From the NCBI GenBank assembly GCA_027324805.1, contig DAHVRZ010000002.1:85658-149657 (forward strand): a DNA stretch of 64,000 nucleotides, given 5' to 3'. This document shows positions 642 to 15,926 of the stretch, in pieces. Position 1 is the first letter of the stretch, and every line of letters begins with the position of its first letter. This stretch comes from Candidatus Parcubacteria bacterium. Its GTDB lineage: Bacteria; Patescibacteriota; Minisyncoccia; UBA6257; 2-01-FULL-56-20. The translations under genes were made by a program, and so were the position numbers. The notes under the pieces are model-generated. The model had not been told where the DNA came from, ran no database searches, and saw nothing but the letters and a program-made list of their open reading frames with translations.

Positions 642-664
642 AATAAATAATATTCTTCAAAACC

Positions 665-1414: not shown

Positions 1415-1416
1415 CC

Positions 1417-1992: not shown

Positions 1993-2011
1993 ATGCGTAG
2001 ATGCCGCTCAA

Positions 2012-2401
2012 TTATGAAATGACCGTATCAACAACCCTTTTGAGCTTGTCTTCCACCGTGCTCGCAATATCGCCGAGCGCAGGATTATCCACCATACCCA
2101 TCGCAACCGTCGGCAGGATGGCGGACACGAACACGTTTCCTTTTTCCTCATAGACGACCACATTGCACGGAAGAAGTAAACCGATATCCTTCTCCGCCTG
2201 TAACGCCTTGAACGCGAACTGCGGATTGCACGCACCGAGTATGACGTAATTGTCGTACTCGACGTCCAATTTCTTTTTGAGCGTCGCTTTGACGTCGATT
2301 TCCGTTAATACGCCGAACCCTTCCCTCGCCAATGCATCCTTGGTCTTTTGAACCGCCTCGCCGAAGGAGATGGGGTATCGTTTTTTATAGCCGTAATTCA
2401 T
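2012..2401 (-). CDS. DUF302 family protein
   Basis: Reading from the internal start MNYGYKKRYPISFGEAV gives about 130 aa, typical for DUF302. The track's longer N-terminal extension runs into promoter sequence. Confidence 0.7.
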   Translation of the reverse strand: MNYGYKKRYPISFGEAVQKTKDALAREGFGVLTEIDVKATLKKKLDVEYDNYVILGACNPQFAFKALQAEKDIGLLLPCNVVVYEEKGNVFVSAILPTVAMGMVDNPALGDIASTVEDKLKRVVDTVIS

Positions 2402-2440
2402 GATTACATTATACCCCCTGTGGGTATTTCTGCAAAGCAG
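2402..2440 (-). promoter_or_regulatory. Sigma70-like promoter (TTGCAG-N16-TATAAT) with CsoR-type palindrome ATACCC-CCTGT-GGGTAT (2411..2427) overlapping the spacer and -10; near-leaderless start of DUF302 gene
   Basis: The minus-strand sequence reads TTTGCAGAAATACCCACAGGGGGTATAATGTAATC-ATG. The palindrome has the same arms as the two csoR-region operators. The -10 lies 6 nt from the ATG. Confidence 0.55.
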
Positions 2441-2453
2441 CCCGCAGAGCATA

Positions 2454-3752: not shown

Positions 3753-3764
3753 GTTTGTTAACCG

Positions 3765-3941
3765 TTAGCAGCATCCGCCACCTTTTGATTTACGAGGTTG
3801 CTCTTTCTTAGTTAACAGCAGCCGATATTGATCCTTGCATCTCTCGGAATAGAATTGCTTGCCAAATCCTTTTGGATATTCTTGTCCATCTTTGAACTCC
3901 ATCCTGCAGATGGGACACTTTTTCTTGAAAATTTTGAACAT
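3765..3941 (-). CDS. Small Lys-rich zinc-ribbon-like protein (58 aa) ending in GGGCC
   Basis: This is the internal-ATG ORF MFKIFKKKCPICRMEF...GGGCC*. It is AT-rich with atypical codon usage and is wedged between the ICMT-like and PcsB-like genes. Weak support. Confidence 0.3.
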   Translation of the reverse strand: MFKIFKKKCPICRMEFKDGQEYPKGFGKQFYSERCKDQYRLLLTKKEQPRKSKGGGCC

Positions 3942-3955
3942 GTGTTTTTGATATT

Positions 3956-4490
3956 TTATTTCACTGATTTGTCTTTTCGCCTCCACCGCGGAATGAACGC
4001 GGGCGTTTGCGCCGCATAAGCATCCCATTCTCTGCCAAATGCCGCTTGCGCTTCCCTCTCTTCGGTTCGCGCGAGATGCACGTACATCCACAAAAGCACC
4101 GGAAACATGGCAAGCGTGAGAATGGTCGGCCACTGGAACAAGAATCCGAGCATAACGAGTATGAATGCCACGTATTGTGGATGGCGAATGCGGGCATACG
4201 GCCCTGCGGTTGCAAGCGTATGTTCTTTCTGCGCTTTATAGAGGACAGTCCATGCGTCCATTAAGAGGAATATCCCTATGCCGATCAGGATGTAGCTCAG
4301 AATATGGAACGGCCCGAAGTGTGAGCGGAAAACCATACATCTCAGTGAATAACGCGACGATGAATGCGGAGAATGCGCCGAACGATCGCCAATCGCGCGG
4401 CGTCTTCGGTTTTGTGAAGCTGAACGCGAACACGATGAAGATTGCGGAATTGATGATGACGAGCGGCCAGAGGCCATAACTGTTGTCCAT
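3956..4490 (-). pseudogene. Isoprenylcysteine carboxyl methyltransferase (ICMT)/phospholipid methyltransferase family gene split by a frameshift near 4311..4320
   Basis: The N-terminal part is ORF 4236..4490 (WRSFGAFSAFIVALFTEMYGFPLT). The C-terminal part is in another frame within 3956..4501 (GPYARIRHPQYVAFILVMLGFLF, the ICMT signature). The two frames share the DNA around ggcccg at 4311..4316. This is either a real pseudogene or a one-base sequencing indel. Confidence 0.6.
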
Positions 4491-4491
4491 A

Positions 4492-4815
4492 TCAGTGACA
4501 AGAGGAATGATCGTGTTTCATATCATGATGAGTTTCGGCCTTTGAGGATTGCTCATCGTCCGTAATGTGATTATCGTGCAGTACCTCATTGTGCGGCGGT
4601 TTCCGATGCCGCATCATCATGATGACGCACGCCACGAGAAGCACGAAAGCTATGAGCGGTAGGAATAATGCTGCTCCGCCGAACGCCGCGACACCGCCGC
4701 CCAAAAATAGGATGGCGAGAATCGGCACGGCGCAACAGGCGACCATCATCCACATCATTGAGGAGCCGTGGCCACCCTCATGATTGTGGTCACTATTGTT
4801 ACTTTGGTTGTCCAT
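4492..4815 (-). CDS. His-rich small membrane protein (2 TM), possible metal-binding
   Basis: The N-terminus is SDHNHEGGHGS and the C-terminus is HHDMKHDHSSCH, with hydrophobic helices between. The gene sits 1 nt upstream of the ICMT-like gene. Confidence 0.55.
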   Translation of the reverse strand: MDNQSNNSDHNHEGGHGSSMMWMMVACCAVPILAILFLGGGVAAFGGAALFLPLIAFVLLVACVIMMMRHRKPPHNEVLHDNHITDDEQSSKAETHHDMKHDHSSCH

Positions 4816-4847
4816 AGTTTAGTTTGATTAATTTCTTTACCAGACTT

Positions 4848-5321
4848 TTACTGCATGTTCCACGTGAACGTCCTCACTGCTACCCCACCGACGTTGCTTA
4901 CCGTGAGCGTTATCGTCTTTGGCGTCGACGATGGCGCAGGGAACGTAAGCGTGCCGTTGCGATGATGCCCACCTACAGCAGGGCCATCCCATGCGATGGA
5001 TGCAAGTGAGTCGCCACGATCATCGGTCAGTACGGCAACTTTCGTCATATCCATATCGAGACTGCCCATGTGGGTATCGATCCCAAAGTTGAACGTCCAC
5101 GTGCTTGTGCCGGGCGCGAGCGGCTGTGCGATGACTTCCGCCGTACCCTCGGAATTGGTCTGTGATTCGTAAGGCGACGATGCCGTGCCGGGTGCCTGCT
5201 GCGTTTGGCTTGCCGCTCCTCCATATTCCGTAGGCGTGCCCCTCGGTACGCTCAAAGCGTAGAGAAAAAACATCCCGGCAAGGACGGCAAGCCCAATAAG
5301 AGCGATGTTGATTTTCTTCAT
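4848..5321 (-). CDS. Secreted hypothetical protein with Met/His-rich patch (THMGSLDMDM, GGHH)
   Basis: Signal peptide at MKKINIALIGLAVLAGMFF. The motifs loosely resemble CopC-like Met-rich Cu(I) sites, but this is not diagnostic. Confidence 0.5.
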   Translation of the reverse strand: MKKINIALIGLAVLAGMFFLYALSVPRGTPTEYGGAASQTQQAPGTASSPYESQTNSEGTAEVIAQPLAPGTSTWTFNFGIDTHMGSLDMDMTKVAVLTDDRGDSLASIAWDGPAVGGHHRNGTLTFPAPSSTPKTITLTVSNVGGVAVRTFTWNMQ

Positions 5322-5761
5322 ATTGTGCGATGTTTGAATTTCATGATCCGACTGATCATATATGCGATGCCCACGAGGTTGAACGCGATCCCGACCCAGA
5401 AAAGCTGTACTTGGTATGCCCCAATGAATGACGCGAACGCACTCACCCCGAGAACCGGCAAGATGTTCACGAGATAATGGGCGCAGCAGGAGATCATCGC
5501 GCCCGTGGACGTTGTTCCTGTCACGGCAAGCATTTTCCCGCTCGGATCCTTGGTGTGAATCTCGGCCTTCAGATAGCTGTACAACCCGATCTGGATGCCA
5601 AACCCAACCGCGAGACTTCCGAGATAGTACCAGTAACTTGAGAACTGGCTCGCGGCAAATCCAACGCCGGAGATGAGACCGACGACCAGGAAATATGCGC
5701 CGACCAAAGCTAGCGTTGCGGCTGCTCCCTTCGCGATCGATGTGATGACGGTGCGGTTCAT
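5318..5761 (-). CDS. 4-TM membrane protein with CCAHY motif
   Basis: ORF of 147 aa that overlaps the downstream gene by 4 nt. No family recognised. Confidence 0.5.
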   Translation of the reverse strand: MNRTVITSIAKGAAATLALVGAYFLVVGLISGVGFAASQFSSYWYYLGSLAVGFGIQIGLYSYLKAEIHTKDPSGKMLAVTGTTSTGAMISCCAHYLVNILPVLGVSAFASFIGAYQVQLFWVGIAFNLVGIAYMISRIMKFKHRTI

Positions 5762-5762
5762 G

Positions 5763-6389
5763 TTAATTCATCTGCGCGAGTTCGCCCGCGATCTTGTCGT
5801 TGTCGATACCCATGTTTGGGTCGTCGAAGACATAGCGGACGATGCCCTGCTTGTCGATAAGGACGAACGTGTGGCCCGGGTACGAACCGTAATGCATGGA
5901 TGAGTTAACGGTAAGCATGCCGTACTCGTTCGATACGCTTTTGTCTGTGTCAAAGAGTACGGTTGCCGAGGCGAGCTGTGGCATCTTCTGGATCGCGCTT
6001 TGCCAATCCGACGGCTGATCGATCACCACCGAAAGCGCGACGGTATTCGAGCTATTGAGCTGCGGGAGTGCCACCATCTGATTCCAGCACGCCGGGTAGC
6101 ACATGATACCTTCGTTGAAGAACAGCACCACATCTTCCCCCTTCAGACTGTCATTCGTGTACGTCGTGCCGTTCCGGTCTTGAAGCGAGAATTGCGGGGC
6201 TGGTTTGCCGACGAGGTCGTTAGGCGATCCCACCGAAGCGGCTGCGCTCCCCGAATGCATGGGGTCGCCGCCCGCCTGTGGACTGCCGCTTCCGCGACTC
6301 AGCATGTAGATGCCGCCGATAACGAATGCCGCGATAGCGATGATCGCCACAATGGCGGTCACATTAGATTTTTTCTGATAGTTTTTCAT
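5763..6389 (-). CDS. TlpA/ResA-like thiol-disulfide oxidoreductase (redoxin, thioredoxin fold), membrane-anchored
   Basis: The VGKPAPQFSLQDRNG...VVLFFNEGIMCYPACWNQ motif places a CxxxC-type redox site in an AhpC/TSA-redoxin context. The start was moved to the internal MKNYQKK. Confidence 0.75.
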   Translation of the reverse strand: MKNYQKKSNVTAIVAIIAIAAFVIGGIYMLSRGSGSPQAGGDPMHSGSAAASVGSPNDLVGKPAPQFSLQDRNGTTYTNDSLKGEDVVLFFNEGIMCYPACWNQMVALPQLNSSNTVALSVVIDQPSDWQSAIQKMPQLASATVLFDTDKSVSNEYGMLTVNSSMHYGSYPGHTFVLIDKQGIVRYVFDDPNMGIDNDKIAGELAQMN

Positions 6390-6396
6390 GTTGGTT

Positions 6397-7257
6397 TTAT
6401 TTTTCTTTGTTTTGTTTAATTGCCATGGCCGTAAACCAGGCGAGAAGCCCAACGATCACAATCGCCCACACGAACTGCGGCACCCAGCCGATGAAGCGGT
6501 TGAGCGATTGCAAAATTTGCGTAATGAAGATGTCGACATCCACGGCCGTTGCCGAGTATCCCATCGGATTGTTCGCTGCCCATATGAGCGTGAAGGCACC
6601 CATGATGGTGAAGGTAGCTCCCGCTAAGAGGTCAGAGATCCGCGTCTTGAATTCCTTTCCAAACAGGGTGAACGTAAACGGCTTCCGCGCTTCGAAGAGG
6701 CGGTTCGTGAGTTTTGTGCGATCAATGATGGACGCCAAAATGAAGAGTGGCGTCACCATGCCGAGGACGTAGGCCAAGGTGTAGACGATGCCCCATGCGA
6801 AAGAACCCGGAAGCACGGAGAGCGCGAGCGCTCCAGCAAGAACAGGGGCGCAACAGGTCGTCGCGATGCCGGAGAATATGCCGAGGACGTAGACCGATGC
6901 CGCTGTTTCCTTCTCTTTCACTTCAAACTTAGGCTTCCACGATGACGGCATAGGTAATCGCTTCCCGAAAAAAAGTGAGATGCCCAGAGCGAGAAGCAAC
7001 AGACCTACAACCGTAAAGATCTCGTGGTGATAATGCCCGAAGAACGTGCTCAAGGACGAGAATCCCAGCCCGAGCGGCAAGAATATGGTCAGGATGCCGA
7101 GGAAGAAGATAAACGTCATGAGAAATACCTTCCGCCGCGTCTCAAAGATTGAGCCGAAATAGGAGGGCAGAAGAACGGTCACGCAGCAGGGCGCAAAAAG
7201 GGCAGCGATTCCCGCCACGAATGCCGCTATGAGTGATGTGCTGATGAGGAGTTCCAT
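6397..7257 (-). CDS. ccdA: CcdA/DsbD-family transmembrane thiol-disulfide electron transporter
   Basis: Polytopic membrane protein with FAPCCVTVLLP and TTCCAPVLAGAL motifs, the DsbD_2/CcdA-like Cys-in-TM pattern. It is adjacent to the redoxin gene. Confidence 0.7.
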   Translation of the reverse strand: MELLISTSLIAAFVAGIAALFAPCCVTVLLPSYFGSIFETRRKVFLMTFIFFLGILTIFLPLGLGFSSLSTFFGHYHHEIFTVVGLLLLALGISLFFGKRLPMPSSWKPKFEVKEKETAASVYVLGIFSGIATTCCAPVLAGALALSVLPGSFAWGIVYTLAYVLGMVTPLFILASIIDRTKLTNRLFEARKPFTFTLFGKEFKTRISDLLAGATFTIMGAFTLIWAANNPMGYSATAVDVDIFITQILQSLNRFIGWVPQFVWAIVIVGLLAWFTAMAIKQNKEK

Positions 7258-7262
7258 GGTCG

Positions 7263-7463
7263 TTATTGCAACCCACAACCGCTAGGCTGACCGTAGGATG
7301 GGGCTTGGTTTTGCGCTTGCGACGATGGCGCGGCAATCTGATTTTCCTGGGTTACCGCGTTAGCACCGAATGGCCGGAACGCATAGGCCCACGCCGTACC
7401 GACGATGATCACGAAGAGCGCACTACTGATGAACAGCCAGAAATTGTCATTGGTTGGTTTCAT
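7263..7463 (-). CDS. Small membrane-anchored protein ending in C-terminal ...SGCGLQ
   Basis: ORF of 66 aa with an N-terminal TM and a Q/A/S-rich tail. The C-terminal motif is shared with the upstream gene. Confidence 0.45.
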   Translation of the reverse strand: MKPTNDNFWLFISSALFVIIVGTAWAYAFRPFGANAVTQENQIAAPSSQAQNQAPSYGQPSGCGLQ

Positions 7464-7478
7464 GTTTTTTATTTCCGG

Positions 7479-8474
7479 TCATTGCACCCCGCAGCCGCCC
7501 GACGATTGCGTCTGCACCGGAGTGATTTTGTTTTCTATCTGCTGATACCCTTGCGCACTCGAATACGCGGCGCCGAGGACCGCCTTCGGATCCACCGCAC
7601 TCCAGTCTATGCCCTGGCTTTGGAAGTAGGTCGCGAGGGTCATATAGGTATCCGGGAACCAGTAGGAATTCACCGCGAGCGCGGCTTTATACATGTCCGT
7701 TTCCGAGACGCCCTGCGACGCCATGAGCTCGAGGAGGGCGAGCATTGCCATGCCGTGATTGCAGTCCGGGAAGTACGTAGAGTTGCCGCAACACGGGCGA
7801 TAGATATTCTGTGCAACGCGAACGACGAGCGCCTGCTGATCGGCCGTGAGCGTTATGAATTGATGTGCGCTATAGTGCGTCATCGCATCGCCGACCGAAA
7901 GCGTCCATCCGCCAGTCGAAGCAAAGTTCTTCGCGCTGCCGTATTGCGGATTTTGCATCGGACCGCTTGTGAGGATCGGATTGTTATTCCCAAGCCCAAG
8001 CGCCCATAGAAGATTCAGGATGACGCCGGAATTCTGTGGCGTGATGACGAGATCGCTGTTGTCCGTATTATCGAGAAGCGCTTGCATGTCGGGCGACAAC
8101 CCGCCACGCCGTGCGTACAATGCCTCAAATTGCGGCTCGTCGATTACGCCGCTGGAAACCAACTGCTTCCCCAGGTCGCCCCAACGTGCGGGCAACGTCA
8201 CGCCCACCGCCGGGATCACTTTTTCCTGAAGCGCAGAAACTGACGCGGTTTGCGTGGTCGTGGCCGAGGATCCTTTCGCCGAAAAAAGATTCTGACCTCC
8301 TGTTGATCTCTGGCTGCCGACATAAACGAACGCCGAAGCGATAAACAGTGCGGCAGCGAGAATACTAAGCGGCAAAAATAGATCTTTCCGGCCATCTTTT
8401 ACCGCTCCTTCCGGGAGAATATCTTCCGCCGGTTCCGATTCGTGATGATGTGGTTCGTGTTCCATATGATTCAT
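7479..8474 (-). CDS. Membrane-anchored His/Cys-rich protein (N-term HEPHHHE; RPCCGNSTYFPDCNHG) ending in ...SGGCGVQ
   Basis: ORF of 331 aa with a single TM. No family recognised; C-terminal Cys-x-x-x motif. Confidence 0.55.
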   Translation of the reverse strand: MNHMEHEPHHHESEPAEDILPEGAVKDGRKDLFLPLSILAAALFIASAFVYVGSQRSTGGQNLFSAKGSSATTTQTASVSALQEKVIPAVGVTLPARWGDLGKQLVSSGVIDEPQFEALYARRGGLSPDMQALLDNTDNSDLVITPQNSGVILNLLWALGLGNNNPILTSGPMQNPQYGSAKNFASTGGWTLSVGDAMTHYSAHQFITLTADQQALVVRVAQNIYRPCCGNSTYFPDCNHGMAMLALLELMASQGVSETDMYKAALAVNSYWFPDTYMTLATYFQSQGIDWSAVDPKAVLGAAYSSAQGYQQIENKITPVQTQSSGGCGVQ

Positions 8475-8477
8475 GCG

Positions 8478-8969
8478 TTATTCGTCGCAGCACGCGGCGA
8501 GTTTATTGACAAGCTCTTCGAATTGCGAGCTGCCTCTTGCTTCGTCTTTTATTTTCCGACCCGTAACTAGTTTCAATTTCAGCGCCCAAAAGATTGAATA
8601 TACCTTGTAGGCACCCTCAAATGTCTGCTTCGCACGCTGCTTCTCGCCTTCCGACTGCAACTTATTGCCAACCTCGATAAGGCGCATAGTCGTCGCAAGG
8701 AGGTGTTTTGCGATACACCACGTCTCGCCTTCATTTTCCGGCATCAACTGCGCGAGAAATTGTTTGCGTAACTCCCTGATCTCCTGCGCCGTATCGAAAT
8801 ACTCGTCTTTTTTTGTTTTTACACCGGTAAAAACAAAGTGTTCTTCGAGGCTCACGAGATTCATGACGGCAATGCTCAGATCTTCCGTCGTTGAAAGATC
8901 GACGCCCGCTTTCGCCTTGACCGATTCTATTCTTTTGAGGAACTCTTCCAGTGTTGGTTTTGTATTCAT
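8478..8969 (-). CDS. Hypothetical soluble protein (163 aa) ending AACCDE
   Basis: ORF in the tight minus-strand gene string, with no TM. Function unknown. Confidence 0.5.
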   Translation of the reverse strand: MNTKPTLEEFLKRIESVKAKAGVDLSTTEDLSIAVMNLVSLEEHFVFTGVKTKKDEYFDTAQEIRELRKQFLAQLMPENEGETWCIAKHLLATTMRLIEVGNKLQSEGEKQRAKQTFEGAYKVYSIFWALKLKLVTGRKIKDEARGSSQFEELVNKLAACCDE

Positions 8970-9054
8970 GGTAGTTTAATGGAATGATTGCGCACCAAAA
9001 AACCGCATTCCTGCGGTTTATGGCGCTACGAACGACACGGCGAATCTGGTTCGC

Positions 9055-9468
9055 TTAGGCGTTCATAGCGCAAAATAACGACGGATCACGCTTTTCAAGG
9101 AGAGATATCCAGCGATGCTGTTTACGGATGCCGTTCGCCTTCCCTTCGGTAACGATACCCAACCGGCGTTGTGTTATAAATGGCAGATCTGCGACGACAG
9201 AGACTGTAAGCCACGCGAAAACTGCCAATAAAGCCAAAAATGTAAAAGCTAATGAACTTACAATGCCGAGCGATGCCCCAAGGAGCGCGTTGATATGTAT
9301 TGTCGCGAATTGGAATGGGTTCATGCCGTTCACGCATTGCTGGCTCCCGGGAATCGCCGCGAGGCAATTCGCATGATTGCCCGCTCCCATATTGGCCATC
9401 GCAAAGCCGCCCGCCACGAGGGCAAGGACGGCTGTTAGGATGACCATGGTTGCGAGCGCCGATTTCAT
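9055..9468 (-). CDS. Membrane protein with extracytoplasmic Cys pair (HANCLAAIPGSQQC)
   Basis: ORF of 137 aa with a signal/TM segment and an internal TM. It lies directly downstream of csoR. Confidence 0.5.
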   Translation of the reverse strand: MKSALATMVILTAVLALVAGGFAMANMGAGNHANCLAAIPGSQQCVNGMNPFQFATIHINALLGASLGIVSSLAFTFLALLAVFAWLTVSVVADLPFITQRRLGIVTEGKANGIRKQHRWISLLEKRDPSLFCAMNA

Positions 9469-9469
9469 G

Positions 9470-9739
9470 CTATCTTCGTTGTGATAATTTATACACTTTC
9501 AAGATCTCGTCAGCGGCCTTTTTACCATGTCCTGCTTTCATCTGCATCGCTACGTGGGTAGCAAGATGATTCTCAAGGAGCAAGCCCTCAATGCCGGAAA
9601 GCGCCTGCTTGATAGCGGACGACTGCGTAATAACGTCAATACAGTACTTTTCCTCATCGATCATCTTTTCCAGGCCCTTGATCTGGCCTTTTACGATCTG
9701 TAATCGCCGCAGGGCTTTTTTCTTAATAACCTTATTCAT
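9470..9739 (-). CDS. csoR: CsoR/RcnR/FrmR-family (DUF156) metal-sensing transcriptional repressor
   Basis: ALRRLQIVKGQIKGLEKMIDEEKYCIDVITQSSAIKQALSGIEGLLLENHLATHV is a very close match to the family helix bundle. The sensory positions read Y-C ... H-x3-H. The start was placed at the internal MNKVIKKK, giving 89 aa. Confidence 0.8.
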   Translation of the reverse strand: MNKVIKKKALRRLQIVKGQIKGLEKMIDEEKYCIDVITQSSAIKQALSGIEGLLLENHLATHVAMQMKAGHGKKAADEILKVYKLSQRR

Positions 9740-9745
9740 ATCTTC

Positions 9746-9774
9746 ATGATACCCCTCTAGGGTATAAGTGTCAA
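9746..9774 (-). promoter_or_regulatory. Promoter of csoR operon: TTGACA-N17-TATCAT with operator palindrome ATACCC-CTCTA-GGGTAT (about 9749..9765) in the spacer; csoR ATG 6 nt after -10 (leaderless)
   Basis: The minus-strand sequence reads TTGACACTTATACCCTAGAGGGGTATCATGAAGAT-ATG. Coordinates are +/-1 nt. Confidence 0.6.
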
Positions 9775-9800
9775 ATAAACCATCCATAATGATATCCATT

Positions 9801-9813
9801 CCCTATGGTAGGG
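9801..9813. promoter_or_regulatory. Short palindrome CCCTA-TGG-TAGGG between the divergent promoters
   Basis: Seen directly in the intergenic sequence. Possibly an additional half-operator. Confidence 0.3.
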
Positions 9814-9841
9814 TTGACAACATACCCCTGCGGGGTATCAT
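9814..9841 (+). promoter_or_regulatory. Promoter of gene 9905..10246: TTGACA-N16-TATCAT with operator palindrome ATACCCC-TGC-GGGGTAT (9822..9838) in the spacer
   Basis: The sequence reads gggTTGACAacATACCCCTGCGGGGTATCATgg. It is divergent from and architecturally identical to the csoR promoter. Confidence 0.6.
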
Positions 9842-9904
9842 GGAGAGGTAAACGTATTGTGGATACATCAATAATAAAGGTCGTCAACGCAAAAGCAATT
9901 CATT

Positions 9905-10246
9905 ATGGAAGAACATACGCACGAATACGGTCATCACATATTGCTTCGCTGGGTACTCGGCATTCTTATTTTGGTCGTGGTCTTTTGGATGGGCGTCCAA
10001 GTGGGCGAGTTCAGAACCGCCTTCGGATACAGCTACGGAATGTGGCCGGGCATGATGGGGAATAATTACTACGGTGCCACTCCTTATCCTTATGGCTATC
10101 CGATGATGGGAGGATATTATTATGGAGGCCAGACTGCGGGTCCGTCCCAATCTACGACAACCACCGCGCCGACTTACTATTACGGCCCTGGCGGTATGAT
10201 GCAGGGGTATTATCAGAACGCACCACAAACGACCAGCGCAAAGTAG
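9905..10246 (+). CDS. Small membrane protein with His-rich N-terminus (EEHTHEYGHH) and Gly/Tyr/Met/Pro-rich low-complexity C-terminal tail
   Basis: ORF of 113 aa with one TM. The tail reads YGMWPGMMGNNYYG...YPMMGGYYYGG...GGMMQGYY. It is transcribed divergently from csoR from an operator-bearing promoter. Confidence 0.55.
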   Translation: MEEHTHEYGHHILLRWVLGILILVVVFWMGVQVGEFRTAFGYSYGMWPGMMGNNYYGATPYPYGYPMMGGYYYGGQTAGPSQSTTTTAPTYYYGPGGMMQGYYQNAPQTTSAK

Positions 10247-10315
10247 CCAGCGATAAAAGAAACCGTACCGGACATTTTATCCGATACCCGCTATGCTTAT
10301 ATCTGGGCGGCAAGC

Positions 10316-10344
10316 AAAAATCCCGCGATGAGCGGGCATTTTTG
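10316..10344. terminator. Bidirectional Rho-independent terminator (A5-TCCCGCGATGAGCGGGCA-T5)
   Basis: A hairpin at 10322..10336 is flanked by A- and T-tracts. It lies between the convergent genes 9905..10246 (+) and 10354..10581 (-). Confidence 0.55.
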
Positions 10345-10353
10345 TTCCTAATT

Positions 10354-10569
10354 TTATTCAATTCCCATCTTATCCAAGATGTGCGCCTCGATTTGGCGTA
10401 TCCGTTCCCTCGTAACTCCGAACGCCCTGCCGGTCTCTTCAAGGGTTCTCGATCGTCCGTCCGCAATGCCGAACCGCAACTCGAAAATCTGCATCTCCCG
10501 CGGGGTTAATTTCAGGACCTTCTTCATAGCCTTATATCGTTCAATGACGGCATCACGATCCCGTTTCAT
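10354..10569 (-). CDS. Stand-alone sigma-70 region 4 (HTH) domain protein, ~71 aa
   Basis: [48 protein letters not shown] is a classic sigma region 4.2 HTH. No regions 2 or 3 are present. A TATAAT at 10580..10585 overlaps the first ATG, so the mRNA is probably leaderless and starts at the second ATG (MKRDRD). Confidence 0.6.
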
Positions 10570-10597
10570 ATTGTTTATCATTATAGATTTATTTTAA

Positions 10598-10648
10598 AAA
10601 TTGGCTACTTTCTAACTACATCCAATAGCATCCGAAAGTAGCCAATTT
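10598..10648 (-). terminator. 15-bp perfect inverted repeat AAATTGGCTACTTTC / GAAAGTAGCCAATTT (21-nt spacer) overlapping the dcm stop codon, followed by T-run; terminator or protein-binding site
   Basis: Seen directly in the sequence. The large loop is atypical for an intrinsic terminator. Confidence 0.35.
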
Positions 10649-11636
10649 ATCCGCCAACGTCCCGTATCGCTCTCATCACTTCCGCCGCCACCTGCGGCAC
10701 AATGGCATTGCCCAAGGCTTTGATTCGCTCTACTCGGTGCTGTTTTACGGTGAGCTCGCATCCGTCCAGCCGGGCGGGAAGCCCATCATCCACTCGACAA
10801 AGATCGGTTGCAGCTTCAAGCCAGTCCGACCCTGCACCACCTCGCCAAAATTTGATTTTCCCCGGTCCGTATAGGAAGCCCTGCTGTCCTGCGCTTTGGG
10901 CGTAGGCAGGATTTCGTAGAGCCGCGGCAATATTTGCCCGAGCCGCGCGCCGTGCCGATCGCCAGTCCTCTTTGACTGCCGGAAAAATTGTCCGTTCCCG
11001 TAATGAACGGTCTTCGTGTATTCCGCGCCAACAACCTCGCTTGCGACCGGCGTGGGAAGCATCGTGGGCAACGATCCAGACCCGATCCCTCCGGTGCGGG
11101 GCTTCGACGGCACAAGCTGGAATAACAAACGATTGGACTTCGTAGTTTTGATCTTCCAGGTCAGATAGCACTTGGTCGAGCGCCAGGTTGATGATGCCAG
11201 CAACGTTCTCGCCAATGATCCAATGGGGCCGCGTTTCTTTGATAACTCTGAGCATTTCAGGCCAGAGATAACGGTCATCCAGTTTGCCTCGGCGCTTTCC
11301 GGCGAAACTGAAAGGCTGGCAAGGAAAGCCACCCGTGAGGAGGTCAAGTTGATAGCCTGCGGCAAGTTTATGCTGTGCTTGCTCCCCTTTTTCATTTGAG
11401 AGCTTTTGAGATTCGGTGTGAAGCTGTCCGACGCTGTGGGCGTCGGCAACAAGTCGTTCGATTGATAACTCCCTGATGTCATTGTAGATTTTCGCATGTT
11501 TGAAATTCTTTTTTATTATTGCTTGGCAGAATTTGTTGTTATCACAGAATCCGACGTTCTCATACTTGTCGCCCCACACCCATTGCGCGGCGAGTGCAAA
11601 TCCGCCGATGCCGGAAAAAAGATCGAGGTGTTTCAT
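10647..11636 (-). CDS. dcm: DNA (cytosine-5)-methyltransferase
   Basis: C5-MTase motifs are present: DLFSGIGG (I), GGFPCQPFS (IV), ENV (VI) and LGNAIVPQV (X). The 329-aa length is typical. No restriction endonuclease or Vsr gene is nearby. Confidence 0.85.
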   Translation of the reverse strand: MKHLDLFSGIGGFALAAQWVWGDKYENVGFCDNNKFCQAIIKKNFKHAKIYNDIRELSIERLVADAHSVGQLHTESQKLSNEKGEQAQHKLAAGYQLDLLTGGFPCQPFSFAGKRRGKLDDRYLWPEMLRVIKETRPHWIIGENVAGIINLALDQVLSDLEDQNYEVQSFVIPACAVEAPHRRDRVWIVAHDASHAGRKRGCWRGIHEDRSLRERTIFPAVKEDWRSARRAARANIAAALRNPAYAQSAGQQGFLYGPGKIKFWRGGAGSDWLEAATDLCRVDDGLPARLDGCELTVKQHRVERIKALGNAIVPQVAAEVMRAIRDVGG

Positions 11637-11637
11637 G

Positions 11638-11901
11638 TCATGTGATGCCCGGGATCTTGCTGTAGACCCACCGCACGACTTTGTAGCTGAAATAGCCCGC
11701 TTCGATCACGAGCACGATCCCGAACGTGATAAACAGCTCCGGTATGGGCAGAAAGATGTCGAACAGCGCGAGGTAGTTCCCCGCCTGCGTAAGTGTACCC
11801 GCGAGATTGACGGAAAGCGTCGCCACGGGCAATAGCGTGAGCGGGGCCGTGATGAGCTGGATGAGATATATGAAAATCTGTAGAAGCCAGTAGATGATCA
11901 T
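11638..11901 (-). CDS. Small polytopic membrane protein (87 aa)
   Basis: Hydrophobic ORF that overlaps the upstream gene by 4 nt (ATGA-type coupling). Confidence 0.45.
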   Translation of the reverse strand: MIIYWLLQIFIYLIQLITAPLTLLPVATLSVNLAGTLTQAGNYLALFDIFLPIPELFITFGIVLVIEAGYFSYKVVRWVYSKIPGIT

Positions 11902-13226
11902 AGCGTGATGTGTTGCACGAAGCGCAATATCCAGAATCCAAGCATGAGGATCAGCATGAAGGATATTCCTGCCCTCAGCGGATCGAGCACCGACGAAAAG
12001 GCGGCGTAGGTGGTCGTACTCATGAGCGTGCTCGTGTTTGTACCTTCCTGAAAGTCCTGGAACGCCGTAATAATGATCTTCGCGTAGCCGAACGGTATCC
12101 GGTTGCCGAGATTGCCCCAGATTCCGTTGAAGGAATCAAAAAGGGCCGCCTGCTCCGACGTGTTCGGAATAAAGAGATTGCACCCTGCTTGTTCGAGATT
12201 GCCCACCGGATCATTAAGGAAGGTCGAGGTGGTGAATTGGCAGTTTGCGGGCGTCGAGGACGTTTCCCCGCCGCCGAAATTGAACATGCCATTAGGAAAT
12301 GGCGCAAAGGCGGGCGCGTTGTTGCTGATCGTGAAGCTGATGACCGACCCCGTGATGTCGAAATTCGTCGAGGTGTTCGCCACTTCGAGATCGGCGTACC
12401 ACACGCTCGAACTCGGCCCCTGCGGAGTGAGGAATTGGTAGGTTTGTGGAATCTTGAGCTCGGTGTCCGTGCCGGGCGGAAGATCGGTGTAGGTGGTCGA
12501 TGCGGCGAGCGTAAGGTTGCCCGGACCCGTGCCGAAGTGGACGGTTACGACCCCGCTCTGAGTGCTCGTCGAATTGTTCGAGAGATAAAAATCCCAATTC
12601 GGGAATTGCCCGATCACCGCGCCATCGAAAGGCTGGAGGAACACAGGCTGCACGAGTTCCTGGATGGAGTTCACGTAGAAGATCTGCCAGTAGGTGCTGC
12701 CGTCGGTCGGCAATGATTCTCCCACGCCACAGGTATAGCCGTTGTAATAGAAAAAAGTGAGATAGATCGGCGTCGCCTGGGTAATGCTCAAAGTCGGCAC
12801 GAATGAATTGGAATTGGCATTCCATACCGTGCTCATCGGGCCGTACGTGTTGCCGTACGGCGCCTGGCTCGCTCCCGCATAGCTGCTGCCGAAACCGCCC
12901 GCGCATCCGCCGCCCGTACCCACACCGCCATGCGTGAGGACGTGCCCGCCGGCCGACCATCCGGCATACGGGCCGTTGTAACTGAGCTCCGGATCGGTGC
13001 TTGTCCCATTGATCGAGACCATGATGCCACCGGGCAGGTCGTACCCGCCGAAGCCGAGCTGCACCTTGTGCCAGTCGATCACGAGGTTGCCGTTCTGGTC
13101 GAGGTAGATCGAATCGGGCTGGACGTAGGTCGAGGGCGCCGTGATGCTGAACGCGAGCGCGTCATGCGACGAGAATATGAAAATGCCGAGGAGCGCGGCG
13201 AGGCCGACAAAAATATATTTCTTCAT
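11898..13226 (-). CDS. Secreted Gly/Thr/Asn-rich 442-aa protein with signal peptide and C-terminal TM anchor (type I membrane protein)
   Basis: Signal peptide at MKKYIFVGLAALLGIFIFSSHDALA and a beta-rich low-complexity ectodomain with scattered Cys. The C-terminus is AGISFMLILMLGFWILRFV. No family recognised. Confidence 0.6.
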   Translation of the reverse strand: MKKYIFVGLAALLGIFIFSSHDALAFSITAPSTYVQPDSIYLDQNGNLVIDWHKVQLGFGGYDLPGGIMVSINGTSTDPELSYNGPYAGWSAGGHVLTHGGVGTGGGCAGGFGSSYAGASQAPYGNTYGPMSTVWNANSNSFVPTLSITQATPIYLTFFYYNGYTCGVGESLPTDGSTYWQIFYVNSIQELVQPVFLQPFDGAVIGQFPNWDFYLSNNSTSTQSGVVTVHFGTGPGNLTLAASTTYTDLPPGTDTELKIPQTYQFLTPQGPSSSVWYADLEVANTSTNFDITGSVISFTISNNAPAFAPFPNGMFNFGGGETSSTPANCQFTTSTFLNDPVGNLEQAGCNLFIPNTSEQAALFDSFNGIWGNLGNRIPFGYAKIIITAFQDFQEGTNTSTLMSTTTYAAFSSVLDPLRAGISFMLILMLGFWILRFVQHITL

Positions 13227-13254
13227 GGTGGTGGGCGGGGAAATTCCATGTTTG

Positions 13255-13506
13255 TTATTGCCCGCGGTGGCGGATCGCGCTGATCACGAATTCGACGACG
13301 ACGAGCGCGAGAAGGACGCCGATGATGAGCGACATGTACCCCTCAAGGCTCGTGAGAAGCGCGGTCGCTTGGGCGAGAATGTCGCCCGTGAGGTTGGACG
13401 GAAGCACGATGGTGTCGCTCGCCGTTTGCGCAAAAACGAAAGCAGGCGCAAAAAAGGCCAGCGAAACCAGCGATGAAACTGTGATAAATATTTTCTTCAT
13501 GCGCAT
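13255..13506 (-). CDS. VirB2/TrbC-like pilin-type small protein (signal peptide + C-terminal hydrophobic segment), paralog 1
   Basis: The 83-aa ORF MKKIFITVSSLVSLAFFAPAFVFAQTASD...MSLIIGVLLALVVVEFVISAI has type-IV-secretion pilin-like topology. The call rests on topology only. Confidence 0.45.
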   Translation of the reverse strand: MRMKKIFITVSSLVSLAFFAPAFVFAQTASDTIVLPSNLTGDILAQATALLTSLEGYMSLIIGVLLALVVVEFVISAIRHRGQ

Positions 13507-13572
13507 ACGTGAAGGGACGCCTCACTGCATCCCCTCGCCTATGGGCTCTAGGTAGGGCGGCAAAACCGATAC

Positions 13573-13845
13573 CTAGTGAGCGCGGGCTCGCGACTTCGGC
13601 AACAAGCCGATGACCTGCTTCGCGAAGTAGAACACGAGCGGGATCGCTGCGGCGACCACGACGAGGCCTAAAATGCCCTGATCCGTGAAGATGTTGGACA
13701 CCGAGGCCAGGAGGTCCGTAACCGTCGAGGACGGCACCGTCAACGCTCCCGCCGGGATCGACTGCGCGTGCGCGGCCGCGACGGCAACGATGCCGAGGAT
13801 GGTAGCGCCTGCGCCAGAAACCCACATGGAAATTTTCTTGACCAT
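13573..13845 (-). CDS. VirB2/TrbC-like pilin-type small protein, paralog 2
   Basis: MVKKISMWVSGAGATILGIVAVAAAHAQS...TDQGILGLVVVAAAIPLVFYFAKQVIGLL. The track's ORF begins at a TTG codon 19 codons upstream, and the ATG start at MVKK is preferred here. Confidence 0.45.
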   Translation of the reverse strand: MVKKISMWVSGAGATILGIVAVAAAHAQSIPAGALTVPSSTVTDLLASVSNIFTDQGILGLVVVAAAIPLVFYFAKQVIGLLPKSRARAH

Positions 13846-13885
13846 GGTTGTGTTAATTGGTTTATATTTGCGACCTTTATTTTTC

Positions 13886-14011
13886 TCATAGCCAGATGTC
13901 AATGAAAGTGAAGAAGAACGCGTGCAGCGTCGTCGCTGCGAACAGGAGCAAAATCCACGAGGGATTCACCACCTGCGACCACGCGAGGAATATTTGATCG
14001 AGCGGCTGCAT
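13886..14011 (-). CDS. Tiny membrane peptide (41 aa) MQPLDQIFLAWSQVVNPSWILLLFAATTLHAFFFTFIDIWL
   Basis: Hand-translated, since it falls below the track's length cutoff. Its start overlaps the upstream stop (TGATG). Confidence 0.35.
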   Translation of the reverse strand: MQPLDQIFLAWSQVVNPSWILLLFAATTLHAFFFTFIDIWL

Positions 14012-14166
14012 CAGTGATTGAACCCGTCATTTTTGACCACGACCTTGAGCCACTTGTCTCCCGTGATACCGAGGAATATCCCCACCACGCCGTCAACGAG
14101 CGCCACGATGCAGAAATCGAGGGCGAACGTGAGCAGGATAAGTGCGATGAAATACTGGAAGGTCAT
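14011..14166 (-). CDS. Tiny membrane peptide (51 aa) MTFQYFIALILLTFALDFCIVALVDGVVGIFLGITGDKWLKVVVKNDGFNH
   Basis: Hand-translated. Its start overlaps the upstream stop with an ATGA overlap at 14163..14166. Confidence 0.4.
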   Translation of the reverse strand: MTFQYFIALILLTFALDFCIVALVDGVVGIFLGITGDKWLKVVVKNDGFNH

Positions 14167-14327
14167 GCGGGTTGAATATGGTTATGGTCGTCGTCAATCG
14201 GCTCGTAGTGATAATCGTCATCTCCGTCATCGTCGGCATTTTCGTCAACCGACCAGATGAGCGCGAACATGACGAGCATGAGAGAAAGCGCGCCGGACCA
14301 GAAGCCGTTGAAAAAATCCCAATTCAT
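14163..14327 (-). CDS. Small membrane peptide (54 aa) with acidic/His tail (MNWDFFNGFWSGALSLMLVMFALIWSVDENADDDGDDDYHYEPIDDDHNHIQPA)
   Basis: Track ORF 14163..14348, trimmed to the internal ATG that forms an ATGA overlap with the upstream peptide's stop. Confidence 0.45.
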   Translation of the reverse strand: MNWDFFNGFWSGALSLMLVMFALIWSVDENADDDGDDDYHYEPIDDDHNHIQPA

Positions 14328-14467
14328 TTTCCAAGTAATTTTTGCCACCAGGACTTTTTCGGCGGGACGTAGAATCCCATCGGGCGCGGCGGGCGCTTGA
14401 GCGCCGCGAGGCGCTTTGCGAGCCAGTACAAGATGACGAAACCGATGATGGTAAGGATAGGTGTCAT
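14324..14467 (-). CDS. Tiny membrane peptide (47 aa) MTPILTIIGFVILYWLAKRLAALKRPPRPMGFYVPPKKSWWQKLLGK
   Basis: Hand-translated. It starts 9 nt after the stop of the Cys-rich peptide. Confidence 0.4.
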   Translation of the reverse strand: MTPILTIIGFVILYWLAKRLAALKRPPRPMGFYVPPKKSWWQKLLGK

Positions 14468-14476
14468 GGTGGTGAT

Positions 14477-14638
14477 CTAATCTTCTTCGTCATCAATTTC
14501 CTCATCGTCTTCGTCGTCATCATCCAGATCGTCTTCGACATCGCCCAATTCATCGCCATATCCTTCATGGCAATGGCAGTTGCAAATATCCGGGCCATCA
14601 CAGAAATCGGGGTTGGAACAAATTGAGCAGACGATCAT
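14477..14638 (-). CDS. Cys6His2-rich peptide with poly-acidic tail (53 aa): MIVCSICSNPDFCDGPDICNCHCHEGYGDELGDVEDDLDDDDEDDEEIDDEED
   Basis: Hand-translated, with no internal stop. It is the first ORF after the AT-rich leader and has a metallothionein-like or zinc-knuckle-like Cys spacing. Confidence 0.4.
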   Translation of the reverse strand: MIVCSICSNPDFCDGPDICNCHCHEGYGDELGDVEDDLDDDDEDDEEIDDEED

Positions 14639-14677
14639 GATTCCATTTTGAAGCGGTCGTTAAAAAGTTTCCGCGGG

Positions 14678-14725
14678 GCCAAAGTGTGCATAACTGCCGA
14701 AAAGGAATTTATCCACACTTTGGCA
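14678..14725. repeat. 11-bp perfect inverted repeat GCCAAAGTGTG ... CACACTTTGGC (26-nt spacer) in operon leader
   Basis: Seen directly in the sequence at 14678..14688 and 14715..14725. Confidence 0.6.
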
Positions 14726-14743
14726 TTGGAAACAAAAACCGAA

Positions 14744-14852
14744 AGGGGCAAATATAAATACAGACTACACAGAAAGGAAGACGAGGAACTACAGAAAAAC
14801 GAGGAAGGGGCAAATCTTAATTAATTAAGAAATTAATTATATATTTGCCCCT
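14744..14852. repeat. Three AGGGGCAAAT boxes: direct at 14744..14753 and 14806..14815, inverted at 14843..14852 (next to a candidate -10 TATAAT at 14836..14841 on the minus strand)
   Basis: Seen directly in the sequence. The pattern is iteron or operator-like, in an AT-rich stretch of about 270 bp. Confidence 0.55.
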
Positions 14853-14870
14853 ATACAAGATAAAGAAAAA

Positions 14871-14900
14871 TCCGCCTGATATGGACAGGCGGATTTTCTT
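14871..14900 (-). terminator. Rho-independent terminator (TCCGCCTG-loop-CAGGCGGA + T-tract) after the winged-helix regulator gene
   Basis: An 8-bp GC-rich stem with a T-tract on the minus strand. It has an A-tract on the other side and may work in both directions. Confidence 0.6.
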
Positions 14901-14911
14901 GGAGCGTACCG

Positions 14912-15223
14912 TTAAAACTTGATCCGGTAGTAGGTCGCCTTCTTGAAAAAGCCTGATCCTTTTTTTGGATCTTTGAAGGTCGTTGTCCATTGCTGCAAAA
15001 ATCCTTTTTTGACGAGGATATTTTTTGCGATTCGGGCACCTTTGTAACTCATCCCAAGTTTCAATGCTATTTTCTGGAGCTCGACAATTTTTGGCACGCG
15101 GATGTTACCGATCTCCTCGACGAACGCCTGGTATACGCGCGTTTGCCTATCCGTGAGCCGCCGCAGTAGCACGGATCGCGTGGCCGCGCTCGACACTTCG
15201 CCGAGAGGGATAAATCCTTCCAT
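14912..15223 (-). CDS. Winged-helix transcriptional regulator (TrmB/MarR-like wHTH), 103 aa
   Basis: LTDRQTRVYQAFVEE...IVELQKIALKLGMSYKGARIAKNILVKKGFL matches the wHTH pattern. The gene lies between the rplK terminator and the leader of the peptide/pilin operon. Confidence 0.5.
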   Translation of the reverse strand: MEGFIPLGEVSSAATRSVLLRRLTDRQTRVYQAFVEEIGNIRVPKIVELQKIALKLGMSYKGARIAKNILVKKGFLQQWTTTFKDPKKGSGFFKKATYYRIKF

Positions 15224-15408
15224 GATTTTTTGGCGTTATCGCCCTTGCACACGCACGACAAAGGATGGGGATCAGCTCCCCCTCTCTGCCGAAGTGATAA
15301 ATCTTGCGACACCGACGATCGCATCGCGCGCATGTTTCCCAACGGGAAAATCGTTTTCTGTCCTTTTGCATCTCATAGGGGCGATTATTTTTCCGACCTT
15401 TGGATGCA

Positions 15409-15436
15409 ACAAAAAACCAGTCAGTAATGACTGGTT
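15409..15436 (-). terminator. Rho-independent terminator of rplK: 9-bp stem AACCAGTCA/TGACTGGTT with GTAA (GNRA) tetraloop + T-tract
   Basis: Seen directly in the sequence, 65 nt downstream of the rplK stop. Confidence 0.6.
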
Positions 15437-15500
15437 TCCGCCGGAGTACCCAATGATAATTTTTGGGAAACTCCGATTTTTACAGACTTTTTAGATTACG

Positions 15501-15926
15501 TTAGCCCTCAACAGTGATTCCCATATTCTTCGCGGTACCCGCAATGATGCGCTCCGCCGCGTCGAGATTGTCCGTATTGAGGTCCGGCAGTTTGCGCTCC
15601 GCGATCTTGCGGACATCCGCTTTTGTGACCGTTCCCACTTTGCTCTTCAAGGAATCCGCAGCACCTTTCTCAATATGCGCAGCTTGTTTAAGGAGCGCTG
15701 ATGCCGGCGGGGTCTTCAGAATGAAAGAGAATGAACGATCCTCATAGATCGTTATCTCCGCAGGAACCACGTCGCCCTTCATATCCTTTGTGGCGTCGTT
15801 GAACTGTTTGCAGAACTCCTGGATGTTGATGCCCTGGGGACCGAGCGCGGTACCCACCGGAGGCGCAGGATTCGCGCCGCCCGCGGGGAGTTGGAGCTTC
15901 AAGACGGTTTTAATCTTCTTGGCCAT
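15501..15926 (-). CDS. rplK: 50S ribosomal protein L11
   Basis: [43 protein letters not shown] is a canonical L11 N-terminus. The length is 141 aa. Confidence 0.95.

Follow-up and report, generated by a model that had tools for sequence, protein, structure and literature searches.

The DNA considered in this study, referred to as the window, is a stretch of 64,000 nt from a Candidatus Parcubacteria bacterium (GenBank assembly GCA_027324805.1, contig DAHVRZ010000002.1, positions 85,658 to 149,657 of the forward strand). All coordinates are positions in the window, and names such as L001 and L004 refer to the related contigs and loci with which it was compared. From 14638 down to 11638 the minus strand carries nine closely packed open reading frames (ORFs), which stand at the edge of an integrative element of about 23 kb inserted at the 3' end of rplK. 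I hold, with moderate confidence, that this cluster is the virion (coat and tip) module of a temperate, inovirus-like element of Paceibacterota, within the candidate phyla radiation (CPR). It is inovirus-like but without the ATPase (pI) and the replication protein (Rep) that define such phages; both hallmark genes are missing from most members of the lineage, the window element included, and the genomes of the lineage go down to 2.9 kb.

The initial annotation of this DNA had described a self-contained and possibly horizontally acquired envelope module with pilins of the VirB2/TrbC type. The first half of that interpretation has held up: the operon belongs to an integrase-borne element at rplK and the control region upstream of it bears repeats; the pilus half has not. 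Overlooked were the integration in the 3' end of rplK, the existence of free circular relatives and the filamentous-phage-like layout of the genes.

The operon runs in the order cys53, tm47, tm54, tm51, tm41, coatA, coatB, big442 and tm87, followed by dcm and a gene for a sigma region-4 protein, and its first nine genes encode products of 53, 47, 54, 51, 41, 90, 83, 442 and 87 aa. All nine co-oriented ORFs are present as originally described, and so are the four start/stop overlaps from which translational coupling had been deduced, a deduction that stands: ATGA at 14324–14327, 14163–14166 and 11898–11901 and TGATG at 14009–14013. The remaining intergenic gaps had been given as 40 nt or less, which is right for three of them (9, 40 and 28 nt) but not for the gap between coatA and coatB (66 nt).

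At the head of the operon, cys53 (14477–14638) encodes a Cys/His-rich, cytoplasmic, zinc-binding-like protein with a polyacidic tail. It had been called metallothionein-like, but its pattern, CSICSx5CDGxDxCxCxCH, is conserved in the manner of a zinc-binding mini-domain. The product of tm47 (14324–14467) has an N-terminal transmembrane (TM) helix and a Pro-rich basic tail, and that of tm54 (14163–14327, its ATG at 14327 overlapping the stop of tm47) has a TM helix and the acidic tail DDDYHYEPIDDDHNH; both genes are found in the integrated lineage only. The next two, tm51 (14011–14166, joined to tm54 by ATGA) and tm41 (13886–14011, joined to tm51 by TGATG), are core genes that encode hydrophobic peptides and occupy the position of the filamentous phage genes for pVII and pIX. 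Both have homologues in the free circles L016, L017, L030 and L065 described below, while the small CxxC proteins of L016, L017 and L065 are analogues of cys53 with no homology established. Then come coatA (13573–13845, with its ATG at 13845; a 90-aa precursor) and coatB (13255–13506; an 83-aa precursor), each with a Sec-type signal peptide and a single hydrophobic helix in its C-terminal part. The last two genes are big442 (11898–13226), for a secreted protein with a C-terminal membrane anchor, in the position of pIII, and tm87 (11638–11901), for a three-helix membrane protein, ATGA-coupled to big442 and in the position of pVI.

The nine ORFs are genuine genes despite the lack of any family match, because they have homologues in a fixed order and show dN/dS values of 0.11 to 0.36. 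Every one of them recurs, with the order unchanged, in relatives that share just 31–41% identity in the 442-aa protein, and gene order is kept in more than 40 loci. Over nine elements, and with dS at about 1.4 and so near saturation, the mean pairwise dN/dS is 0.11 to 0.24 for the five smallest ORFs (cys53, 0.15; tm47, 0.24; tm54, 0.17; tm51, 0.18; tm41, 0.11) and 0.13 to 0.36 for the others (0.15 for coatB). Four of the tiny ORFs had been considered too short for gene calling; in fact, public gene callers annotated the 47-, 54-, 51- and 41-aa ORFs on sister contigs, and the Cys-rich ORF alone went uncalled on near-identical ones. Pfam and PHROGs hold no family for the nine proteins or for the 103-aa protein encoded upstream, and the module proteins of the window, L011, L016 and L017 gave nothing significant against either collection.

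The four larger proteins may be described more closely. The mature part of coatA, with cleavage predicted after AHA, comprises 63 aa with a neutral to acidic N-terminal part and the basic tail KSRARAH. The family forms at least 182 clusters at 90% identity, and in 118 coatA clusters the net charge is +3 to +5 over the last 14 residues and 0 to −3 over the N-terminal part. Versions without a signal peptide measure 53–61 aa, and in some relatives coatA is fused to an extra N-terminal domain (201–226 aa in all). The mature part of coatB (57 aa, cleavage predicted after VFA, tail RHRGQ) is that of a distant paralogue of coatA, as judged by cross-matches between the two profile hidden Markov models (HMMs), and it is found in every free circle examined. 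A signal peptide is followed in big442 by two beta-sandwich domains (about residues 30–305), a linker rich in Ser, Thr and Gly, a helical C-domain with the invariant pattern C...C..F.P...PFGY, and, at the C-terminus, a TM helix. Of the family's markers tm87 is the most conserved, with 95 clusters at 90% identity and 1113 at 50% identity (E ≤ 1e-3), nearly all of 83–89 aa; it is ATGA-coupled to the big gene in all relatives examined. AlphaFold2 predicts three helices for it (pLDDT 84), and Foldseek found no match to this model in the PDB. Profile searches of the PDB with tm87, coatA and big442 found none either.

At least 12 distinct circular contigs of 2.9–5.5 kb code for hardly anything besides six of the families (tm51, tm41, coatA, coatB, big442 and tm87), which stand there in the same order. 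The core set in the circles was recovered with HMMs built from the families of the window. L017 has 4,233 bp with a 55-nt terminal repeat; contigs of 4,374 nt (about 4.3 kb) were recovered from three samples at equal length with permuted starts; and L029, L030 and L031 (5,460 bp; terminal repeats of 141, 55 and 30 nt) are 100% identical, permuted, and come from three unrelated samples. A further nine JGI contigs of 2,911–4,488 bp have terminal repeats of 123 or 127 nt and GC contents of 36–54%. The smallest member, L065 (JGI Ga0184615_10029497), has 2,911 bp, eight ORFs, about 300 nt of non-coding DNA and no enzyme. Its proteins are one of 77 aa with a C-terminal TM helix, tm51-like and tm41-like peptides, coatA (57 aa), coatB (53 aa), a 426-aa homologue of big442, tm87 and a 51-aa CxxC zinc ribbon. 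In the circles, coatA is often present in two or three copies or in a domain fusion, and the 5,460-bp circle also carries a DPPY-type DNA methyltransferase. No ORF in the circles of 2.9–5.5 kb has the signature of a Rep, a polymerase or an NTPase. The distant matches to tm87 and coatA all lie on contigs shorter than 7 kb or on contigs of tandem units. In L016 a unit of 4,495 nt occurs 1.94 times over, and the P0105 contig holds two diverged 3.7-kb units.

An evolutionary link joins the family to genomes that have inovirus hallmark genes, because homologues of tm87 and big442 occur in two of them. The first, reached by a tblastn search of GenBank phages with tm87, is MG945510.1, a circular record of 5,022 nt from flamingo feces labeled 'UNVERIFIED: Microviridae sp.' An 88-aa ORF in it aligns along its full length with the tm87 profile (51 bits, 7.5e-17 locally, and about 4e-9 at the scale of a library of 1.8 billion proteins, an estimate extrapolated from the scores). 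The ORF sits between pIII-like and Zot-like genes and is ATGA-coupled to the gene for a 422-aa protein with a signal peptide and an anchor, whose C-domain aligns with that of big442 (hhalign E 6.6e-4, probability 27%). The same genome encodes a protein of 241 aa that weakly matches Zot and 'head morphogenesis' entries, a rolling-circle Rep of the G2P type (PF23343, 7.6e-14) and a 49-aa coat-like ORF. The record carries VP1/VP2/VP4-like features though its genes are inovirus-like, and its gene content suggests that it was probably misclassified as Microviridae. The second genome, L075, is a metagenomic circle of 6,884 bp with coat-like genes (the coatB match being weak), a big gene, tm87 (2.5e-32) and a homologue of wh103, a gene of the control region discussed below. 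It encodes a 192-aa P-loop ATPase with an AAA match above threshold and lesser ones to 'protein I of M13' (3.5e-4) and Zot (0.022). Among all the loci examined, a pI-like ATPase occurs in these two only and a Rep in MG945510.1 only; phmmer searches with the two ATPases found nothing in any other locus examined.

The mobility of the window element is evident at its boundary with rplK, the gene for L11 (15501–15926). The last 25 nt of rplK (15501–15525, minus strand) form the att core, TATGGGAATCACTGTTGAGGGCTAA, which is the right-hand boundary of the element. The similarity of the window to L001 and L004 begins about 4 nt past the core, at 15529, within the last 29 nt or so of rplK; on those contigs the order at the junction is a Phage_integrase gene, the core and wh103, as in an attP. 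The same 25-mer flanks the element of L010 as an exact direct repeat, at 7220 and 19316. It occurs once in the window, the far end of the window element lying beyond the 64 kb. Window 1–15525 is part of one element of about 23 kb, present on L001 as an attP-type or tandem junction, because L001 joins window 100..1, by way of 7.6 kb with genes for a Cu-ATPase, Fic and Phage_integrase, to window 15529..10680. With an integrase on L001 and in the relatives, a 25-nt repeat in L010 and a core that coincides with the end of rplK, a tyrosine integrase mediates the insertion and the att core rebuilds the 3' end of the gene.

Elements in the relatives, which belong to metagenome-assembled genomes of Candidatus Paceibacterota or Parcubacteria, are shorter (10–12 kb) and share a common plan: rplK, zn74 and wh103, the small ORFs, coatA (with a coat fusion in some), coatB, a protein of 44x aa, tm87, in some cases a gene for 79–101 aa, dcm, variable cargo (restriction-modification, toxin-antitoxin, Fic), a tyrosine integrase of 314 aa, and then host genes (cytidylate kinase, gatB). 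The integrase is at the far end in L007, L010, L011, L014, L022, L024, L026 and L037. Two different elements stand in tandem in L007, and one genome of 829 kb has a second copy elsewhere, with another integrase and no dcm.

Between rplK and the operon lies a control region. Its first gene, zn74 (15147..15371, minus strand; 74 aa; dN/dS 0.35), encodes a zinc-ribbon protein with a CxxC...CxxC pattern, is conserved in L007, L010, L014 and L022–L026, and has no Pfam or PHROG match. Its 3' end overlaps by 77 nt the second gene, wh103 (14912..15223, minus strand; 103 aa; dN/dS 0.13), which encodes a DNA-binding protein of winged-helix-like type, a candidate for a regulator or for an initiator that binds iterons. 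The overlap and both frames are kept in distant relatives. A programmed frameshift fusing the two products was considered and rejected, and they are treated as overlapping genes, because at the A-rich site wh103 lies in the +1 frame with respect to zn74 and not in the −1 frame. All integrated relatives have wh103, and its protein is homologous to a 116-aa protein of L075 (HMM, 5.9e-11; phmmer, 3e-7), which in turn matches weakly the winged helix-turn-helix (wHTH) of replication-initiator PHROGs (E 2e-4).

Downstream of wh103 come a strong intrinsic terminator (14866..14898, minus strand; a 13-bp stem and a T run, with an equivalent hairpin in relatives) and three exact GGGGCAAAT[AC]T repeats (14745..14851; at 14745, 14807 and 14841). 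Two of the repeats, inverted relative to each other, flank the AT-rich palindrome TTAATTAATTTCTTAATTAATTAA, and the whole block of repeats and palindrome is near base-for-base identical in L007, L010, L022, L023, L024 and L025. There follows a 15-bp inverted repeat, CCAAAGTGTGGATAA ... TTATGCACACTTTGG (14678..14724), whose arms contain TGTGGATAA and TTATGCACA, each with a DnaA-box-like TTATNCACA. Two of the three TTATNCACA sites in the 64 kb are in this repeat, which eight relatives retain, 3 of the 15 pairs having compensatory changes on both sides. An origin made of iterons, AT-rich DNA and DnaA boxes and served by wh103 would be a reasonable but unproven reading of this arrangement; the function of an operator or of a hairpin is equally possible. 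The DnaA-box reading itself is just a lead, because such sites were not found in the free small circles and because TTATNCACA also occurs beside the integrase; an element-encoded protein may bind there instead. In every relative there is a TTATNCACA site about 30 nt after the integrase stop, beside the att site (L007, 7638 and 19281; L010, 19194; L011, 17600; L014, 12510; L022, 17389; L024, 13657; L026, 18634), which may serve the recombinase as an arm-type site or be bound by DnaA or wh103. Rfam gave nothing in the control regions or the free circles. In L026, about 3 kb of extra DNA (3510–6647) separates wh103 from the Cys-rich ORF, so that insertions in the control region are evidently tolerated.

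The operon continues beyond tm87 with dcm (10647..11636, minus strand), for a C5 cytosine DNA methyltransferase (PF00145, 1.7e-38; phrog_363, 6.5e-66). It is accessory to the module, because neither L023 nor any free circle examined has it. Inside dcm, in the +1 frame, is an ORF of 250 codons (10745..11497, minus strand; phrog_1008, 7.7e-36) that is open in nine of nine relatives. Over Dcm residues 1–46, dN/dS is 0.11 in the Dcm frame and about 2 in the +1 frame, and over residues 96–195 the values are 0.25 and 0.91; over residues 196–296 they become 1.55 and 0.21, and over residues 298–328 again 0.24 and 1.14. Purifying selection thus shifts to the nested frame over residues 196–296 and back to the Dcm frame for motif X. 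The same nesting is found in Lacticaseibacillus phage R9.1 and in Paenibacillus phage Bloom, whose annotation has a separate CDS for each frame (BLOOM_56 and BLOOM_57); it is not discussed in the one paper on P. larvae phage genomics that was consulted. From these frames, the nested ORF looks like a deeply conserved, overprinted gene whose product is possibly a separate target-recognition subunit. The last gene before the terminator (10354..10581, minus strand) encodes a 75-aa helix-turn-helix (HTH) protein of sigma-70 region 4 (PF04545, 1.7e-15), present in some relatives only, and a bidirectional terminator-like hairpin (10322..10336) probably ends the operon.

The remainder of the element in the window (1..10321) is cargo with metal and redox genes, and it extends about 7.6 kb past the start of the window to the integrase. 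It includes genes for a CsoR-like repressor (9470–9799), a DsbD-like protein (6397–7278), a redoxin (5763–6452) and a DUF302 protein (2012–2452), a thioredoxin-like protein within 1–10300, and, on L001 100–7600, a copper P-type ATPase with an HMBD domain and Fic. One contig, L006 (GCA_021844605.1, JAKBTD010000062.1), is 100% identical to window 9578–13993, and its positions 1–111 join window 13993 directly to the 3' end of a CsoR-like gene; it is either a rearranged variant without the upstream small ORFs or a chimeric assembly. The host is a member of the CPR: outside the element, rpoB and rpoC are fused into one ORF of 2250 aa (17163–23915, minus strand), as they are in L010 (2245 aa), and the related contigs come from genomes of the same group.

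How far these findings carry the inovirus-like reading depends on what is expected of an inovirus. According to Roux et al. (2019, PMC6813254), the sole universal marker of inoviruses is the pI-like (Zot, FtsK-HerA) morphogenesis ATPase, and a further feature is the presence of several short structural proteins of 30–90 aa with a single TM domain. Short single-TM proteins, co-oriented genes and a small genome are all present here. Several observations weigh on the other side. From the module ORFs of the window element, of the integrated relatives and of the circles of 2.9–5.5 kb, a pI/Zot-like ATPase, a Rep and a Walker A motif are all absent (a six-frame scan for the motif gave chance matches in non-coding frames only). 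The Zot-like assignments in MG945510.1 and L075 are themselves weak (E 1e-4 to 1e-2). The module proteins have no sequence or fold similarity to known inovirus proteins (with hhalign, the probability against M13 pVI, pVIII and pIII is about 1% or less), a weak test, inovirus coats being rarely alignable between clades, and fold searches with big442 gave generic Ig/FN3 matches only. Some of the circles could in principle be tandem chromosomal arrays, because tandem units do exist (L016 and the P0105 contig). Finally, scans of IMG/VR with big442, tm87 and the tm87 homologue of MG945510.1 found no relatives; PLSDB plasmids likewise have no relative of tm87. In addition, neither an inovirus replication initiator (pII/G2P or equivalent) nor a single-stranded DNA-binding protein was found in the window element or the circles of 2.9–5.5 kb.

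If the module nevertheless builds a virion, its assembly may be pictured by analogy with the Ff phages. The two coat proteins would be inserted by their Sec signal peptides into the cytoplasmic membrane, N-terminus out and basic C-terminus in the cytoplasm, and the DNA of the element would be extruded through the membrane while being coated by those basic C-termini. The leading tip would be capped by tm51 and tm41, like pVII and pIX, and the trailing tip by big442 and tm87, which would also serve for adsorption, like pIII and pVI; cys53 may bind DNA or zinc in the cytoplasm. The energy for assembly and the machinery for replication would come from the host or a helper, because the lineage is without a pI/Zot ATPase and a Rep. 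One possible host route for replication would be through DnaA, acting with wh103 at the region of repeats, AT-rich DNA and DnaA boxes.

A stronger form of the inovirus-like reading is that the circles of 2.9–5.5 kb and their integrated derivatives are autonomous minimal viruses, with about 8–15 small membrane and zinc-binding proteins, no ATPase, polymerase or Rep of their own, and a filamentous or membrane-derived particle made with host factors only. I regard this as a possibility, to be held tentatively. If true, it would establish a new lineage, at the level of a family or higher, related to Tubulavirales, with the smallest genomes known for DNA viruses of prokaryotes.

The help might instead come from another virus. 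A satellite would rely on an inovirus-like helper residing in the same cell, similar to MG945510.1 or L075, to provide the pI ATPase and the replication initiator in trans, as suggested by the absence of both from the window element and the 2.9–5.5 kb circles and their presence in two relatives that share tm87 and the big protein. Known satellites of inoviruses, such as RS1 of CTXphi, retain replication genes and lose structural ones, and the module does the reverse. Moreover, the plan without pI is that of the majority, deeply diverged and under purifying selection, and no helper is present on any contig seen (the 829-kb genome having been sampled at two loci only). A dependence of this kind is unlikely.

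The absence of an ATPase would also be accommodated by an enveloped or pleomorphic element that leaves the cell by budding (akin to a plasmavirus or pleolipovirus, or to plasmid vesicles), in which a vesicle bearing the small proteins and the 442-aa spike encloses the circular DNA and therefore no assembly ATPase is needed. A gene set made up of membrane proteins, the 'spike' with its signal peptide and C-terminal anchor, the tiny circular genome and the temperate, integrase-bearing forms agree with this, as does the fact that CPR cells are monoderm. Set against it are the inovirus-type charge asymmetry of the coat proteins and the missing spike fold and NTPase taken up below, and I give the idea little credence. 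I give still less to a structure that is not viral at all, a pilus-like, adhesin or secretion module, as the initial annotation proposed, that alters the CPR envelope, for example in host attachment or exclusion, and travels with the integrase. In its favor, every product is an envelope protein, the Ig/FN3 domains of big442 are adhesin-like, and the integrated elements bear adaptive cargo (metal resistance, restriction-modification, toxin-antitoxin). It would leave unexplained, however, why six families alone make up many independent circles of 2.9–5.5 kb and why relatives pair the module with Rep and pI-like ATPases, and the loci have no ATPases of a pilus or type IV secretion system (T4SS), no prepilin motifs and no Pfam match to TrbC or T4SS_pilin. 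A decayed prophage remnant or a set of chance ORFs, to which the missing hallmark genes and the many very short ORFs without database matches might point, is excluded by the conservation and selection data: dN/dS of 0.11–0.36 with saturated dS, strict synteny at 31–41% identity of big442, and 1113 clusters of tm87.

The inovirus-like reading bears on more than one element. CPR/Patescibacteria account for a large share of bacterial diversity, and their viruses and mobile elements are barely characterized; full-text searches of the literature on mobile elements and inoviruses of Patescibacteria gave no description of this one. The lineage is widespread but unseen by marker-based virus discovery, having no pI, no Rep, no Pfam or PHROG matches and no entries in IMG/VR, and tm87 and coatA may be used as markers to mine such elements. 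Genomes down to 2.9 kb that encode almost only coat-like membrane proteins raise the question of the least that a filamentous or other non-lytic particle requires for its assembly and replication. The integrated forms, for their part, move genes for restriction-modification, toxin-antitoxin systems and metal resistance between CPR genomes at the rplK 3' hotspot.

Among the known systems with which the module may be compared, the conjugative ones were the first suggested. The initial annotation was right that this is no canonical T4SS, type IV pilus or bacteriocin locus. A monoderm-type T4SS is known in Patescibacteria (PMC12102498), and with it and the VirB2/TrbC pilins the module shares small, secreted, hydrophobic proteins on mobile DNA in CPR genomes. 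The mature coat proteins have, however, one hydrophobic helix and not the two of the supposed hairpin, no Pfam match at E ≤ 1, to TrbC and T4SS_pilin or to any other family, and no VirB4, VirB6 or VirD4 near them in any of the more than 40 loci. As to type IV and Tad pili, neither a class III prepilin leader (G/FxxxE or Flp) nor an ATPase of the PilB/TadA type was found, and the hydrophobic helix of the coat proteins is C-terminal, not N-terminal as in prepilins.

The module may also be set beside budding viruses. Members of Pleolipoviridae and Plasmaviridae form virions that are membrane vesicles and have a small circular genome, a small membrane protein, an anchored spike and some temperate forms with an integrase. 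The element shares with them the small circular genome, the small membrane protein, the spike-like protein with signal peptide and C-terminal anchor and the forms with integrase; it differs in that neither a match to the fold of the VP4-like spike nor a VP8-like NTPase was found and in the charge asymmetry of its coats. Temperate filamentous phages provide another comparison. Prophages of the Pf4/Pf5 type carry their own integrase and those of the CTXphi type use XerCD, both being temperate and forming tandem arrays. The element has in common with them a temperate way of life, site-specific integration and tandem arrays, but differs in its target at the 3' end of rplK, its large and variable cargo, its conserved Dcm and its lack of Rep and pI.

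Two of the systems compared, MG945510.1 and L075, have homologous genes. Both share tm87, short coat-like ORFs and, upstream of tm87 and ATGA-coupled to it, the gene for a big442-like protein; L075 shares wh103 as well. They differ in having a pI/Zot-like P-loop ATPase of their own and, in MG945510.1, a G2P-type Rep, both of which the window element and the circles of 2.9–5.5 kb are without. In architecture, the comparison is with the structural module of the Ff phages (Inoviridae, Tubulavirales). The module differs from theirs in its lack of pI, pIV, pII and pV, in its two conserved coat paralogues and coat fusions with an added domain, in the extra peptides cys53, tm47 and tm54, in genomes down to 2.9 kb and in its CPR host. 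In the M13 record, genes VII (33 aa), IX (32), VIII (73), III (424) and VI (112) are followed by gene I, and VII/IX and IX/VIII are joined by start/stop overlaps of 4 nt; tm51, tm41, coatA/B, big442 and tm87 have the same order, similar sizes and topologies and the same ATGA coupling. In both, two tiny hydrophobic peptides come first, followed by one or more coat proteins that carry a signal peptide, measure about 50–60 residues when mature, and have one TM helix and a C-terminus that is basic; next is a protein of about 430 aa that begins with a signal peptide and is anchored by its C-terminus, and last a small membrane protein with several helices, all in co-oriented genes of a small circular genome that has temperate forms.

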